In this document: piece after piece, positions 12,903 through 19,800 of the stretch
How the letters are laid out: every line of letters begins with the position of its first letter
Position numbering within the stretch: the first letter of the stretch is position 1
Source of the DNA: a virus
Lineage: Duplodnaviria > Heunggongvirae > Uroviricota > Caudoviricetes
Virus record (IMG/VR): IMGVR_UViG_2651869755_000006
Coordinates: 1-23,254 of that record
Reading direction: 5' to 3' (one strand)
DNA: 23,254 bases
Notes under the pieces: generated by a model
Database searches by the model: none
What the model was told of the DNA's origin: nothing
The model's input: only the letters and a program-made list of their open reading frames with translations
Position numbers and translations under genes: made by a program

Positions 12903-13253
12903 TCAATTGATGCGTTCGCGCGCTGTTTTTGCTTTATGACAGGGCCAGCACAGACTCTGCAGGTTACTGTCTGCATCTGTGCCACCATGAGCTTTCGGAA
13001 TGATGTGGTCCACAGTTCTGGCTTCAACGGCTCTCCCATTGCGCAGGCAGTTCTGACACAGATGATTATCACGCTTCAGTATGCGCGCACGTATGGCATC
13101 CCATTTCGAACCATAGCCACGCTGGTGGCGACTCAGTCCTCGTTGATGCTGTACCCATCCTTCGCCACGATGTTTATCGCAGTAACCAGAACTGTCTGTG
13201 GTTGTTCCTGCACATCCACGCTTACGGCAGGCACGTGGGATTAGTGATGGCAT
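12903..13253 (-). CDS. HNH endonuclease (HK97 gp74-like, terminase-associated), 116 aa
   Basis: Cys/His-rich ORF with ...VDHIIPKAHGG...NLQSLCWPCHKAKT... HNH motif; sits just upstream of the terminase small subunit as in HK97-like phages. Confidence 0.85.
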   Translation of the reverse strand: MPSLIPRACRKRGCAGTTTDSSGYCDKHRGEGWVQHQRGLSRHQRGYGSKWDAIRARILKRDNHLCQNCLRNGRAVEARTVDHIIPKAHGGTDADSNLQSLCWPCHKAKTARERIN

Positions 13254-13295: not shown

Positions 13296-13775
13296 CTACT
13301 TAATGCACTGAGTGCGGATATACTCCTGTGCCCCTTCCAGTTGCATCTGCATCGTCATCAGCCGCTCTCTGAGGGTGAAATAATCCCGTTCAGCGGTGTC
13401 TTCCAGTCGGGGGCTGGTTGCATTATCCACGCCGGAGGCGGTGGTGGCTTCACGCACTGACTGACAGACTGCTTTGATGTGCAACCGACGACGACCAGCG
13501 GCAACATCAGCGCGCAGAGTTTCATTTTCAGCTTTCGCATTGGCTAATTCTCTCGAGTACTTTGCATCGAGCGCAGCAACATCACGCTGACGCTGCTGCA
13601 TGTCAGCGATGGTGGCGATCGCCAGCTTCAGCTCACTGACTTTTTTATCACGCTGTTCTTTGTAGGCGATGGCGTTATCACGGTAATGATTGACCGCCCA
13701 CGACAGGCAGACGATGATGCAGATAACCAGAGCATAAATAATCGCGGCGACTCTGCTCACTGATCTATCCCCCAA
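13296..13775 (-). CDS. Rz-like inner-membrane spanin (i-spanin), 159 aa
   Basis: N-terminal transmembrane helix ([17 protein letters not shown]) followed by coiled-coil periplasmic domain; immediately after the endolysin; contains a nested lipoprotein ORF. Confidence 0.8.
13358..13540 (-). CDS. Rz1-like outer-membrane lipoprotein spanin (o-spanin), nested in Rz in the +1 frame, 60 aa
   Basis: [20 protein letters not shown] lipobox signal followed by a proline-rich short mature peptide (PPPPPAW...); entirely inside the Rz ORF. Confidence 0.75.
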
Positions 13776-14290
13776 CAGGCTAATGCGCTTTCCTGGTCAC
13801 GACGAATAACCTGTCCATAGCAGTTATTTGAACGTATGCGGCAATCGCGCCCACCATCTATTATCCACCAGCGAATCGCCTCGCATGCGCCCTTACGATC
13901 ACCGGCATTCAGCCGCTTATAAAACGTCGACGGAAAACACTTACCGGGGCCAATGTTATAGGGACAAAATGACGCGATACCCGCTTTTTGTGGTTCAGTC
14001 AGTGGTACTTTAATATTGCGCTCCACCCATGCCAGCGCCTTATCACGCTCAATGGCGTTGACCTGGTCGCATTTTTCCTTCGACAGTTTCATACCGGGAA
14101 AAACGGGTTTTCCATCCACCATCGTGGCACCCCGACAGATGGTCCAGATGCCGGACCCATCGCGGTATGCCGTTGTGTGGTTACCTTCTTTTTCATCCAG
14201 AAACTGGTCGAGAATATCAGGCGCGGGCGCACCGACGGCAATCAGTGCCAGAACGGCAGCCGACAGGCCGTATCTGATTTTTGCGTTCAT
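13757..14290 (-). CDS. SAR endolysin (phage 21 R / P1 Lyz-type lysozyme), 177 aa
   Basis: Weakly hydrophobic Gly/Ala-rich N-terminus ([19 protein letters not shown]) then lysozyme catalytic region [20 protein letters not shown]; pairs with a pinholin upstream. Confidence 0.85.
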
Positions 14291-14353
14291 GGATATTTAT
14301 CAGGATTTATCGGTTTCTGCCCACGGACAGGTTTATCTGTTCCGGTCAGTGAC

Positions 14354-14704
14354 TTAAGGTTGTGATTCCGGAGGAGTCTTCAGAGAACCAGTAATTCTTC
14401 CTGGTAGCTTTCCTTTGTAGGTTATCCACACATTCTGCGCATCTAAAATTACGGGGCGCTTTTCCGGCGGCTGCTCATCCCCTTCACATAACCCGGCAGC
14501 AACATCCAGGAAGACCTGTCTGATGCTCCTTCTGGCTGCTGCCTCATAAAACTCCAGCGCGGCACCTTCAACACGGTCCAGCGAGATGTCCAGGTCAAAA
14601 ATTTCACCGTCAAAGCGTTTTTTGTCCCGTAACGCTAAAGTTACCGTAACTTTATTCTCAAAATTGCGGATCCCTTTCACAATCAGTTCATAGTTTTGAG
14701 TCAT
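14354..14704 (-). CDS. Hypothetical protein inserted between holin and endolysin, 116 aa
   Basis: ORF with GGGGAGAG Shine-Dalgarno 9 nt upstream, starting 4 nt after the holin stop; no recognisable motif. Confidence 0.6.
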   Translation of the reverse strand: MTQNYELIVKGIRNFENKVTVTLALRDKKRFDGEIFDLDISLDRVEGAALEFYEAAARRSIRQVFLDVAAGLCEGDEQPPEKRPVILDAQNVWITYKGKLPGRITGSLKTPPESQP

Positions 14705-14708
14705 TGAA

Positions 14709-14924
14709 TTACTCTCCCCGTGCAGCCTTACGACGGTCCTCTCTGATTTTGAAATACAGGTTAGTCAGATATGTCAGGAAGCCCAGAACCAGACTCCCCA
14801 GTACACCAATCGCAGCCCACTGTGACGGACTGACCTGATCAAGCCACTGTAAAAACCAGTAGCCAGCACTGCCTGCGGAGGTGCCGTAGGCAATGCCCGT
14901 TGAAATTTTATCCATGGATTTCAT
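14709..14924 (-). CDS. Pinholin, phage 21 S-type, with dual-start MKSM motif, 71 aa
   Basis: Reads [71 protein letters not shown], matching phage 21 S as I recall it; GGAGGTGA Shine-Dalgarno 4 nt upstream. The ORF-track N-terminal extension to 15023 is rejected. Confidence 0.85.
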
Positions 14925-15089: not shown

Positions 15090-15095
15090 GCATGT

Positions 15096-15125
15096 AAAAA
15101 GGCCCCAACACATGTGCGTGGGGCC
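15096..15125 (-). terminator. Minus-strand terminator-like hairpin upstream of the holin gene
   Basis: Minus-strand RNA: GGCCCCA-(11-nt loop)-UGGGGCC followed by UUUUUAC. Confidence 0.35.
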
Positions 15126-15325
15126 TGAGAGTATACATGGTTTCAGTCAACTGCATGGTGCCGGGTGCCTCCCGGTGAATTCAGTACCAGCACCTGAATC
15201 CGCGATTATCCCATATACCTACTCGCTGATTGCCCCTCCGCACAGGGGGATTCACCATGCCAGTTTCTTTTAACAAACTCCCCGCAAAACAGACAACTGT
15301 CAACCGTCTGAATTGTGAGACATTT

Positions 15326-15365: not shown

Positions 15366-15442
15366 TGGCGCGTTGTACTGGATTCGAACCAGTGACCGAT
15401 TGCTTAGAAGGCAATTGCTCTGTCCGGTTGAGCTAACAACGC
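15366..15442 (-). tRNA. tRNA-Arg, anticodon UCU (reads AGA)
   Basis: Hand-folded cloverleaf: acceptor GCGTTGT/ACAACGC + G + CCA, D-arm GCTC/GAGC, anticodon stem ATTGC/GCAAT with loop CTTCTAA, T-arm ACTGG-TTCGAAT-CCAGT. Confidence 0.8.
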
Positions 15443-15455
15443 AGGGTACAGATAA

Positions 15456-15532
15456 TGGACCGCCATCGAGGACTCGACCCCCGCGCAACCAGCTTCGAAG
15501 GCTGGTGCTCTATCCTGATGAGCTAATGGCGG
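15456..15532 (-). tRNA. tRNA-Arg-like, anticodon read as UCG (CGA), with non-canonical features
   Basis: Hand-folded: acceptor CCGCCAT/ATGGCGG (C1-G72) + T73 + CCA, D-arm GCTC/GAGC, anticodon stem CCAGC/GCTGG with loop CTTCGAA, T-loop GTCGAGT (G where T54 is expected). Confidence 0.55.
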
Positions 15533-15539
15533 TATGTGA

Positions 15540-15615
15540 TGGTGGCCCTTGCTGGATTTGAACCAGCGACCTGGCGATTATGAGTCGCTCGCTCTCACCT
15601 CTGAGCTAAAGGGCC
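15540..15615 (-). tRNA. tRNA-Ile2-like, anticodon CAU (ileX/ileZ-type, probably lysidine-modified to read AUA)
   Basis: Hand-folded: GGCCCTT acceptor, anticodon loop CTCATAA, T-arm GCTGG-TTCAAAT-CCAGC, ends GGGCCACCA; close to E. coli ileX as I recall it. Confidence 0.75.
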
Positions 15616-15813: not shown

Positions 15814-15842
15814 AATATATGCCTTTCAATCTACTTTTGCAA
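15814..15842 (-). promoter_or_regulatory. Candidate late promoter (pR'-like) overlapping the 3' end of the Q-like gene
   Basis: Minus strand: TTGCAA (-35), 17-nt spacer, TATATT (-10); predicted transcript of ~70 nt would end at the terminator at 15736..15759, the lambdoid pR'/short-RNA/tR' layout. Confidence 0.35.
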
Positions 15843-16515
15843 CACTTTGCTTTGAAAATGCCGCCTTTTGTTTTGAACGTGTTCTCATTACAAACAATAA
15901 AGCCTCACTATCCAGTCGTTGAAAAATGTGTTTCATTGCAACCCAGTGACGAGTATATGTTTTGGACCAGTTTTTAGTTGTCACTCCCGCCAGTAATGCC
16001 AGCTCCTGGTATTCATAACCTTCCCCACCAAAAAGTTCTGCTTTTACTGCCTGCGCCGCCAGCCAGATTAATTTTTTCAGGCGTTCCTGCGTTTTCCCTG
16101 CAATTTTTCTGGTACCGGATTGAGTATTAAATTCATTCCACGCCCACTGTGTTATCGCGATCTGATATTCCCAACAAATACTCTCGCCGTAACACCACAA
16201 CAACCAGGCTTTATGATGCTCTTCAAGAGACAGCAAAGCCCGCCGCCATGATGATGTCGAAAACTCAACCGGGCTGACCAGGGCAATTGATGAGCCATTC
16301 GCCAGTGATTGTTTTCCCGGGATTGGTGGATTATCCCGCGTTATCATTTTTCCAGTCACTTCATCGCGGTACCGGATTTTTTTTCGCCTGTAACGCCCTG
16401 TATCGAACATGGCATTCTCCTGCCAGGCTTCAAGCTGACCTTTTGTTGCCCCACTCAAATCAGCGGTGGCGATAATGAGCTGCTCACGCACAAACTGTAA
16501 ATACTGGTTATTCAT
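15826..16515 (-). CDS. Putative late-gene antiterminator Q, 229 aa from the ATG at 16515
   Basis: Position directly downstream of rusA and upstream of the pR'/tR'-like elements, tRNAs and lysis cassette; ATGA overlap with the rusA stop and GGAG Shine-Dalgarno. Family assignment is positional, not by sequence recognition. Confidence 0.55.
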   Translation of the reverse strand: MNNQYLQFVREQLIIATADLSGATKGQLEAWQENAMFDTGRYRRKKIRYRDEVTGKMITRDNPPIPGKQSLANGSSIALVSPVEFSTSSWRRALLSLEEHHKAWLLWCYGESICWEYQIAITQWAWNEFNTQSGTRKIAGKTQERLKKLIWLAAQAVKAELFGGEGYEYQELALLAGVTTKNWSKTYTRHWVAMKHIFQRLDSEALLFVMRTRSKQKAAFSKQSVAKVD

Positions 16516-16877
16516 GCGCACTCCAGTTCTGTGATTTTTATCCCCAGCCGCCCACCAGGAACGAGCTGACCGCGCACAATATTGATTTCATCAAACTGCT
16601 CGTCGTCTATGAGAAGTCCGGCATGCGTCAGCGCATCCAGTGGTGCTTTCAGGATATTGTCCAGGTCACGACGGCGCTTATCCGGTGGCTCTGCAATAAT
16701 TTTTATTGCCAGCCGTCCGGACAGGCTTAATTTCAGCCGCTGCTGGCGAACAATAAGCGCCACAGCCCGGCGATAACGCTTTCCCTCCTCCGAGATAAAA
16801 TATGTGCTGCCACGGCGTCGCCAGTAAGTGTTCACCGTCGGCGGGTAAGGCAAAACAAATTCTATGCGTTCGGTCAT
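16512..16877 (-). CDS. rusA: RusA-family Holliday junction resolvase, 121 aa
   Basis: ...PDKRRRDLDNILKAPLDALTHAGLLIDDEQ... closely parallels the [28 protein letters not shown] region of E. coli RusA as I recall it; typical position just upstream of Q. Confidence 0.85.
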   Translation of the reverse strand: MTERIEFVLPYPPTVNTYWRRRGSTYFISEEGKRYRRAVALIVRQQRLKLSLSGRLAIKIIAEPPDKRRRDLDNILKAPLDALTHAGLLIDDEQFDEINIVRGQLVPGGRLGIKITELECA

Positions 16878-17936
16878 TTATGCTTTCCACTTCAGAACAC
16901 CCGAATTTCTCGCGTGCATTAAAAAACGAATCAGCAACAACAGCTGACTGCCGTGTTTTTCTTCAAAATCTTTTACTCCGGCATGTAGTTTGTTATGGCA
17001 TTTACGGCACAACGGAATAACAAACAAATCGTCAGCCTTTGTTCCCATCCCTCCCAGTCCATGACCAATGATGTGATGCGGATCATCTGCCTGATTACCG
17101 CACGTCATGCATTTCTGCGTTTTTACCCAGCGCGTGTATACAGGCATCTCTTCCCGTTGTGGTTTCTGGCGCTGGAGATACTGAGCCGGTGACTCCGGAT
17201 CAACGGCAATGCTGACCACCGTCTTTTCCTGTGGCCGGATTTGTTGCTGGTGGGCGTGAGGCAGCGGCGCAAGATTTTTTGTGCGCTGCTTCAGTATGCT
17301 GGTGGCGGTCTGCTCTCCCGGTACGATGTCGCTTTCACGGTACATTGAGCGGATTTTTTCCACACGCAACCCCAGCGAACGACGTAATACCGCTTCCGGT
17401 AGCGCGTCCACCACCTGATTGCGGACCGCCCACCAGGATAATTCAGCCAGCGATAATTCCCGTTCCTGCGAGCCATTCATTGCATGGCGTATGACGTCAA
17501 TCATCCATGCAGACAGGTTTTGGTGAGCAAGTTGCCCGAGTGATTCGGAGGTCTGGTCGCGCAGTTGGTTGTCGCAGTGCCAGCACAACACCATTGCGCC
17601 GGTACCATAACGGTGAATGACGGTTTCACTGTGGTGATAATCGCCGTGTGGCCACTGGCAGGATTTAACATGGCGCAGTAACCAGTCAGACAATGCGCCA
17701 GCGCCACCAGCAGCACGAATCACTCGTTCGTCGCTGAAAAATGGCAGCAATGTTTTGTCTTCCACTAGCGGCTGGCGAACGGCAGGAACAACCCCGGACG
17801 GCAGATTACGCATGCTTTTCGGTTCCGGCTCCACCAGTACCCGGGTATTGTGGAATACCGGCATGGATTCACGGCCCGGCTTAACGATCACCAGCCCGAG
17901 TTCCGGTACCAGAACAGGTCGAAGTAATACCCGCAC
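16878..17936 (-). CDS. DUF968/YdfU-like protein with C-terminal HNH-like zinc-finger motif, 352 aa (GTG start)
   Basis: C-terminal CMTCGNQADDPHHIIGHGLGG...IPLCRKCHNKLH motif; position between the rem-like gene and rusA mirrors ydfU in the E. coli K-12 Qin prophage; family name from memory. Confidence 0.5.
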   Translation of the reverse strand: MRVLLRPVLVPELGLVIVKPGRESMPVFHNTRVLVEPEPKSMRNLPSGVVPAVRQPLVEDKTLLPFFSDERVIRAAGGAGALSDWLLRHVKSCQWPHGDYHHSETVIHRYGTGAMVLCWHCDNQLRDQTSESLGQLAHQNLSAWMIDVIRHAMNGSQERELSLAELSWWAVRNQVVDALPEAVLRRSLGLRVEKIRSMYRESDIVPGEQTATSILKQRTKNLAPLPHAHQQQIRPQEKTVVSIAVDPESPAQYLQRQKPQREEMPVYTRWVKTQKCMTCGNQADDPHHIIGHGLGGMGTKADDLFVIPLCRKCHNKLHAGVKDFEEKHGSQLLLLIRFLMHARNSGVLKWKA

Positions 17937-19433: not shown

Positions 19434-19589
19434 TTACTCCTCAGGTTCGTAAGCTGTGAAGACAGTGACCTCCGTCTGGCCGGTTCGGATTCGTACCTCG
19501 CAGAGGTCTTTCCTCGTTACCAGTGCCGTCACAATGACGGTAATACAGATGACGATCAGGGCGACTAACATCGCCTTTTGCTGCTTCAT
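19434..19589 (-). CDS. hok: Hok-family type I toxin, 51 aa
   Basis: MKQQKAMLVALIVICITVIVTALVTRKDLCEVRIRTGQTEVTVFTAYEPEE is near-identical to E. coli Hok/Gef family proteins as I recall them; AAGGAG Shine-Dalgarno 9 nt upstream. Confidence 0.85.
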   Translation of the reverse strand: MKQQKAMLVALIVICITVIVTALVTRKDLCEVRIRTGQTEVTVFTAYEPEE

Positions 19590-19646
19590 AGCCTGCTTCT
19601 CCTTGCCTTTCGGCGCGTAAGAGGCTAACCTAGATTTGCCGTTCAT
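19434..19646 (-). CDS. mok: Mok-like in-frame upstream reading frame overlapping hok, 70 aa
   Basis: In-frame ATG 19 codons upstream of the hok start, as in chromosomal mokC/hokC pairs. Confidence 0.5.
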   Translation of the reverse strand: MNGKSRLASYAPKGKEKQAMKQQKAMLVALIVICITVIVTALVTRKDLCEVRIRTGQTEVTVFTAYEPEE

Positions 19647-19800
19647 AGATTGAGCCTCAGATTAATGTTAAGCGTCTTGCCGGACGCGTAATGTTAACTG
19701 GGGCTTTTCTCTATCTGCCTTTTGGTGTTCATGCCTGAGACAGATAGCCTCAAGCACCCGCAGCAATTCTACTTAACTCTCCTTTTCCCGCAAACCGTTT

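Follow-up and report, generated by a model that had tools for sequence, protein, structure and literature searches.

A YdfR-family (DUF1327) gene between the pinholin and RrrQ-type endolysin genes of a lambdoid prophage

Introduction

The closest described lysis cassettes to the one studied here are those of phage 21 and of the Qin cryptic prophage of Escherichia coli K-12. In phage 21, the genes are arranged in the order S21, R21, Rz/Rz1, and the S and R genes overlap (TAATG), with nothing between them. S and R of phage 21 alone suffice for lysis. In Qin, the order is essQ, 4 nt, ydfR and rrrQ, and the stop codon of ydfR overlaps the start codon of rrrQ (ATGA).

A literature search for DUF1327, the family to which YdfR (b1555, P76160) belongs, gave one incidental mention, and most hits for the term 'YDFR' concern a melanoma cell line. 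The only experimental functional data found for the family come from a 2026 study (PMC13232886), in which a bacterial two-hybrid screen picked up residues 1-72 of K-12 YdfR three times, and the full-length protein gave a two-hybrid signal with RNase E 1-597, the catalytic half of the enzyme. In the same study, Strep-YdfR co-purified Rne 1-598-FLAG from lysates, and the eluate contained about 30-fold more nucleic acid than the controls, which was resistant to DNase. Overexpression of ydfR was non-toxic and altered few transcripts. As an earlier case of a small phage protein that attaches to this N-terminal half of RNase E, the authors cited Srd of phage T4 (PMC13232886). Srd stimulates the decay of host mRNA. 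A deletion of K-12 ydfR is also among the hits of the Paradis-Bleau envelope-integrity screen.

Here we describe a ydfR-family gene in the lysis cassette of a lambdoid prophage, its distribution among related loci, and the readings of its function that these data support.

Results

Organization of the lysis cassette

The window, which is the whole stretch of DNA that was analysed (23,254 nt), is the late region of a lambdoid, HK97-like prophage. The genes occur in the order Q, three tRNAs, holin, ydfR, endolysin, Rz/Rz1, HNH, TerS, TerL, portal, capsid and tape measure. The whole lysis cassette lies on the minus strand, with the following features.

13296-13775, minus strand: Rz i-spanin (PF03245, 7e-49)
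13358-13540, minus strand: Rz1 o-spanin, embedded in Rz (PF06085, 2e-19)
13757-14290, minus strand: RrrQ-type lysozyme, 177 aa, with a SAR-like N-terminus (PF00959, 1e-23)
14291-14353, minus strand: 63-nt spacer, no Shine-Dalgarno (sequence)
14354-14704, minus strand: ydfR-family gene (DUF1327), 116 aa, ATG start, TAA stop (ORF list, PF07041, PHROG, RefSeq)
14709-14924, minus strand: S21-type class II holin (pinholin), 71 aa, MKSMDK dual start (PF04971 'P21 holin S', 8e-36)
14712-14719, minus strand: Shine-Dalgarno GGGGAGAG, within the last holin codons, serving ydfR (sequence)
15826-16521, minus strand: antiterminator Q, driving the late transcript that bears the cassette (PF06323, 2.7e-91)

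The holin stop codon (TAA, 14711-14709) is followed by the spacer TTCA (14708-14705) and the ATG of the 116-aa ORF at 14704, and the GGAG core of GGGGAGAG (14719-14712) ends 9 nt 5' of this ATG. A longer GTG ORF extending up to 15023 in the mechanical ORF list was rejected as the holin gene. The ydfR-family gene ends at TAA (14356-14354), and the endolysin ATG is at 14290, giving a gap of exactly 63 nt. The final 20 nt of this gap (AAATCCTGATAAATATCC, 14291-14310) contain neither GGAG nor GAGG. The last 15-17 nt or so (TCCTGATAAATATCC) form an endolysin leader that is conserved whatever is upstream. An initial annotation from the sequence alone had described an ORF inside the lysis cassette that starts 4 nt past the holin with its own strong Shine-Dalgarno and precedes an endolysin gene that lacks a good one. 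All of these points hold, and Pfam matches confirmed the holin upstream, and the lysozyme and Rz/Rz1 downstream.

Inspection of the endolysin sequence showed the catalytic spacing E-8-D-5-T (E35, D44, T50) and an N-terminus that is rich in Gly and Ala and weakly hydrophobic, both of which are typical of SAR endolysins. A scan for terminators and promoters between the holin and the endolysin returned nothing, and we therefore rejected an own promoter for the ydfR-family gene and a terminator before the endolysin. The gene must share the Q-dependent late transcript with the holin, in agreement with the earlier suggestion that the two are made together at lysis.

Several other elements of the window were recorded. 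Three phage tRNA genes (Arg-TCT, Arg-TCG and one with a CAT anticodon) occupy 15366-15615 (minus strand) between Q and the holin, with a terminator-like hairpin just downstream of the cluster (15351-15334, minus strand). An Rfam STnc100 sRNA (15090-15289, minus strand; 140 bits, gathering score 47) sits between the tRNA cluster and the holin, in the late-transcript leader. An HNH endonuclease gene (12903-13253, minus strand) directly upstream of the small terminase subunit corresponds to the HK97-type packaging arrangement, and a 352-aa DUF968/HNHc protein is encoded at 16878-17936 (minus strand), adjoining RusA and Q. A hok/sok-type toxin-antitoxin lies at 19434-19759 (minus strand). It includes an Rfam sok antitoxin RNA (19584-19759, 111 bits) and an ORF (19434-19646) ending in a Hok-like peptide, MKQQKAMLVALIVICITVIVTALVTRKDLCEVRIRTGQTEVTVFTAYEPEE.

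Family identity and distribution

The 116-aa protein had been described as having no recognisable motif. HMM searches instead placed it clearly in Pfam DUF1327 (PF07041; 143.6 bits, E = 2.2e-42, residues 1-112), far above the curated gathering cut-off of 25 bits. PHROG 406/2091, which are families of unknown function, matched at about 1e-67 (PHROG 406, 8e-67), and RefSeq labels the same DNA 'YdfR family protein'. No NCBIfam model matched the protein. Judged from these matches, membership of the YdfR/DUF1327 family is certain. The Pfam and PHROG scores, together with the dN/dS of the N-terminal domain described below, indicate that the ORF is a real gene and not a chance ORF.

A megablast search of 5426 complete E. 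coli genomes recovered the holin-gene-lysozyme stretch at 80% coverage or more in 1301 of them. Parts of the 351-nt gene alone matched 4261 genomes (about 79%), 1903 of these at a coverage of at least 80%, with up to nine matching places per genome. Among phage records, 101 contain the gene. They cover H-19B, BP-4795 and numerous Stx1a and Stx2c phages, and the copy in Escherichia phage PhiR49_2 is 100% identical. The GenBank record of H-19B (AF034975.3, locus L092, 2501-2836) gives no annotation for the DUF1327 ORF that separates S from R, and many Stx1a and Stx2c phage records likewise leave it out.

The family as a whole is very narrow. It comprises 311 clusters at 90% identity, and a set of 1.84 billion proteins contained only 90 representatives. 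Nearly all members belong to Escherichia/Shigella, with a few in Salmonella, Yersinia and Pantoea. A genome-wide scan for the locus with a narrow alignment returned a single Pantoea locus. Two distant members, P0184 (176 aa) and P0191 (170 aa), apparently contain two tandem DUF1327-like domains.

Domain structure and evolution of the protein

The window protein (13.1 kDa) is hydrophilic, with a GRAVY of -0.40 and a pI of 5.5. As the initial annotation had stated, it has no signal peptide or transmembrane segment, the highest 19-residue Kyte-Doolittle window being 0.69. It thus lacks the transmembrane, signal or SAR sequence expected of a holin, antiholin or other membrane lysis factor. The gene can be divided into three parts.

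14489-14704, minus strand: conserved N-domain, codons 1-72 (alignments, AF2 model, dN/dS)
14369-14488, minus strand: linker CEGDEQPPEKRP and 'middle' module, codons 73-112 (VILDAQNVWITYKGKLPGRITGSLKTPP) (family alignment)
14354-14368, minus strand: junction-derived tail, codons 113-116 (ESQP) and stop (variant comparison)

An AlphaFold model of the N-domain from a 37-sequence alignment was confident (pLDDT 90.8, pTM 0.77), and consisted of three antiparallel strands (residues 5-14, 18-27 and 34-43) followed by a long helix (50-73). Residues Y5, Y53 and E54 are invariant across the family, from Escherichia to Yersinia and Pantoea. Comparison with diverged homologs gave a dN/dS of 0.23-0.35 for this domain, at dS values of up to 0.67. 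In the structure-based search suggested in the initial annotation, Foldseek against BFVD returned no match with E<0.01. A profile search of the PDB with the 37 sequences found nothing below E = 0.38 and no relative with a solved structure. A dsRBD (Pfam dsrm), which would call for an alpha-beta-beta-beta-alpha fold and a significant match in sequence or structure, was considered and rejected.

K-12 YdfR and other variants diverge completely past about codon 70, and the family is mosaic after residue 72 or so. The 'middle' module (28 residues) is present in a subset of the family only and absent from K-12 YdfR, reaches a dN/dS of 0.7-1.25 in close pairs, and is modelled with a pLDDT of about 40. 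Because the full-length AF2 model is poor (pLDDT 56, with the C-terminal 45 residues below 50), this module is structurally undefined. An indel hotspot lies directly after codon 112, and the C-terminal ends of the variants read ESQP, KW, LG, EF, or run on as TALRSEK.... Other E. coli variants are 103, 104, 114, 174, 183, 243 or 268 aa in length. A Pfam search with the long C-terminal extensions (variants of 183-287 aa) found nothing besides DUF1327.

Survey of the slot downstream of the holin

Following a further suggestion of the initial annotation, we surveyed 80 IMG/VR loci with a holin 90-100% identical to that of the window. Their arrangements were as follows.

47 loci: holin, 4 nt, DUF1327 gene, variable stretch, RrrQ-type endolysin
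2 loci: holin and DUF1327 gene, the locus ending short of the endolysin
28 loci: phage-21 order, holin and R21-type lysozyme overlapping (TAATG), no DUF1327 gene
1 locus (L074): holin, 4 nt, RrrQ-type endolysin directly, no DUF1327 gene
2 loci: uninformative

In the 47 loci, the endolysin ATG lay 312, 374, 399, 418, 692, 877/888, 1085 or 1263 nt from the holin stop, the window being of the 418-nt type, and the endolysin leader lacked a Shine-Dalgarno in all of them. In L074 (2501-3251), GGGGAGAG, which is the Shine-Dalgarno of ydfR in the window, serves the endolysin directly.

The DUF1327 gene accompanied 47 of the 48 RrrQ-type endolysins and none of the 28 R21-type enzymes. In Salmonella, a 68%-identical DUF1327 gene is followed by a lysozyme 71% identical to the RrrQ-type enzyme of the window, and the holin before them belongs to another family (PF16080). 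The gene is linked to the endolysin type and not to the holin. The window gene, which had been taken for an unknown gene in an unusual position, has the same order as K-12 Qin. As a member of a catalogued family at the site customary for that family, it is ordinary, adds nothing new to the family and is not a new lysis element.

Because the gene is absent from the 28 loci with phage-21 order and from L074, it is dispensable for a cassette of this kind and does not accompany every S21-type holin. More distant homologs occupy other late-operon slots. In Pantoea, a 72-aa homolog that comprises just the N-domain is located between Q and a holin of PF05106, and Yersinia-like prophages have homologs of 76 and 99 aa between the tail genes M and L. 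The gene is thus not tied to lysis, and these slots reflect the behaviour of a moron-like accessory gene rather than that of a dedicated lysis factor. The initial annotation had named two observations that would speak against a lysis role, namely absence from close relatives with lysis unchanged, and membership of a known family of late morons of unrelated function. Both were largely borne out, with the gene missing from relatives with near-identical holins, and distant family members located outside lysis cassettes or upstream of the holin.

Convergent ORFs downstream of DUF1327 genes

An ORF of 79-104 aa lies 3' of the DUF1327 gene on the opposite strand in four genera and three prophage slots, frequently overlapping that gene's 3' end. 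In E. coli, it accompanies the longer variants. Representative ORFs are the following.

L002, 4479-4739, minus strand: convergent partner ORF
L091, 3809-4048, minus strand: convergent partner ORF
L089, 3778-4029, minus strand: convergent partner ORF
L087, 3747-3986, minus strand: convergent partner ORF
L085, 3740-4045, minus strand: convergent partner ORF

These ORFs belong to PHROGs of unknown function (E. coli, phrog_2572, phrog_2411 and phrog_1853; Salmonella, phrog_21218; Yersinia-like, phrog_6806; Pantoea, phrog_25324). The window copy has no such partner. Its slot corresponds to the 688-nt variant from which about 300 nt, encoding a 90-aa convergent ORF, are missing, with the junction directly after codon 112.

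Discussion

Possible function of the window protein

Our preferred reading, which we put forward tentatively, is that the window protein has an accessory role in the cytoplasm during the late phase, with an N-domain that engages RNase E, RNA or both. This small acidic protein would be translated from the Q-dependent late transcript by way of GGGGAGAG in the last holin codons, and its functional unit would be the N-terminal beta-beta-beta-alpha domain (residues 1-72). By homology to K-12 YdfR, this domain would engage the catalytic N-terminal half of host RNase E, RNA, or both. The protein would therefore act on RNA metabolism in the cytoplasm towards the end of the lytic cycle, by modulating RNase E, by serving as an adaptor for it, or by protecting late mRNA, and would not be part of the holin-endolysin-spanin machine. 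We infer from the homolog that association with RNase E or RNA would be the biological function, which could take the direction of stimulation, inhibition or an adaptor role. The gene itself would be a moron-like accessory insertion, which came to be linked with the gene for the RrrQ-type endolysin and whose loss does not abolish the cassette.

The RNase E link comes from one study of a homolog, by two-hybrid and by co-purification from lysate without nuclease treatment, and could be RNA-bridged or an artefact of overexpression. Also against this reading, few transcripts changed upon overexpression of ydfR, it does not account for the C-terminal 44 residues of the window protein, which are absent from K-12 YdfR, and the K-12 deletion scored in the envelope-integrity screen. 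The linkage to RrrQ-type endolysins and the ATGA overlap in K-12 would fit a role in lysis as well.

Such a role was among the proposals of the initial annotation. On this view, the pinholin/SAR-endolysin pathway would be adjusted by a cytoplasmic factor synthesised alongside the holin. The factor might bind the basic cytoplasmic tail of the holin, retain the SAR endolysin until its export, or, from its position upstream of the leader without a Shine-Dalgarno, determine the translation of the endolysin. Small cytoplasmic regulators of lysis have a precedent in the RIII protein of phage T4. The position of the gene inside the cassette, 4 nt past the holin, is consistent with this proposal, as are its strict pairing with the RrrQ-type endolysin (47/48 loci, against 0/28 R21-type loci), the persistence of this pairing in Salmonella behind a PF16080 holin, the ydfR/rrrQ overlap in K-12, the leader without a Shine-Dalgarno in every DUF1327-containing variant, and the envelope-screen hit. 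The last of these might stem from polarity of the resistance cassette on rrrQ, which lies downstream, and co-occurrence among close relatives may reflect plain linkage within one mosaic module. In L074, moreover, an RrrQ-type endolysin directly follows the holin with no DUF1327 gene, and distant homologs are found in the tail operon or upstream of unrelated holin and endolysin types. The protein is cytoplasmic, whereas control of SAR endolysins takes place in the membrane and the periplasm, and overexpression of ydfR caused no growth defect. On balance, we consider a lysis regulator unlikely. A further reading is that DUF1327 is normally paired with a small helical protein encoded just downstream, with or against which it would work as a regulator, antidote or co-factor, the window copy being an orphan that has lost its partner and may be functionally reduced. 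This is in line with the occurrence of convergent ORFs in four genera and three prophage slots, with the weak similarity of the Yersinia and Salmonella partners (BLASTP, E = 2e-4), and with the derivation of the window slot by loss of about 300 nt from a partner-encoding variant. For two partner types, a convergent DUF1327 gene was present in 74/74 (with enough flank) and 80/80 IMG/VR loci, counts that are not independent because the loci are close relatives. The partner families are, however, not demonstrably homologous overall, and BLASTP gave no alignment between the 86-aa E. coli partner and that of Salmonella. Neither the partners nor the DUF1327 protein, including its long variants, had a match in PADLOC-DB (E<=0.1), and Pfam gave none for the partners. 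Solo forms (103, 104, 114 and 116 aa) are common, with an N-domain that is still under purifying selection, and the convergent ORF could be an independent moron using the same insertion hotspot. We regard a two-gene cassette as distinctly improbable.

The gene could also be an inert passenger, either a decaying remnant or a mere translated spacer between holin and endolysin. Its dispensability in nature, the narrowness of the family, the highly mosaic C-terminal half with frameshifted or truncated variants (P0077, P0111 and P0114), and the high dN/dS of the 'middle' module in close pairs (reaching 0.7-1.25) are what such a passenger would display. The N-domain argues otherwise, as its dN/dS of 0.23-0.35 is maintained at dS values of up to 0.67, and Escherichia, Yersinia and Pantoea all keep the domain, with Y5, Y53 and E54 unchanged throughout. 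In addition, the gene is retained in most E. coli genomes, often in multiple copies, and its own strong Shine-Dalgarno is conserved. An inert passenger is a very unlikely explanation.

The reading that we favour, an accessory protein engaging RNase E or RNA, can be extended. The DUF1327 N-domain may be a dedicated temperate-phage ligand of the RNase E catalytic half, with interchangeable C-terminal modules and often a convergent partner. It would serve as a late module, so far unrecognised, that reprograms host RNA decay, or governs how the endolysin mRNA lacking a Shine-Dalgarno is processed, just before lysis. In this extended form the proposal is speculative and rather improbable. The ydfR-family gene is among the commonest uncharacterised prophage genes of E. 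coli, and is present also in Shiga-toxin phages. If the RNase E contact is real, it would be the first factor of lambdoid phages to be directed at RNase E, and would provide a handle on the stabilisation or processing of late transcripts, including stx-linked lysis genes.

Comparison with known systems

The gene closest to that of the window is K-12 ydfR, which belongs to the same family and occupies the same slot in a locus of the same order (L001). Residues 1-72 of the two proteins, which in K-12 YdfR are the fragment reported to bind RNase E 1-597, are identical at 59 of 72 positions (82%). Past residue 70 or so, K-12 YdfR (103 aa) has an unrelated helical tail, whereas the window protein has the CEGDE-PEKRP linker and the 'middle' module, and the ATGA overlap of ydfR and rrrQ is replaced in the window by the 63-nt gap.

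The phage 21 cassette shares with the window the holin family (PF04971), the dual-start motif and the logic of the cassette. It differs in that the window has a DUF1327 gene where the S and R genes of phage 21 overlap, and the R21 lysozyme, like the R21-type lysozymes of the surveyed loci, is only about 33% identical to the RrrQ-type enzyme of the window.

With respect to the proposed function, the closest known systems include Dip (gp37) of phage phiKZ, an inhibitor of the RNA degradosome (PDB 5FT0), and Srd of phage T4. Like YdfR, Srd is a small cytoplasmic phage protein reported to bind the catalytic half of RNase E, an analogy of function with no homology claimed. Srd is the product of an early gene of a virulent phage, whereas YdfR is that of a late gene of temperate phages.
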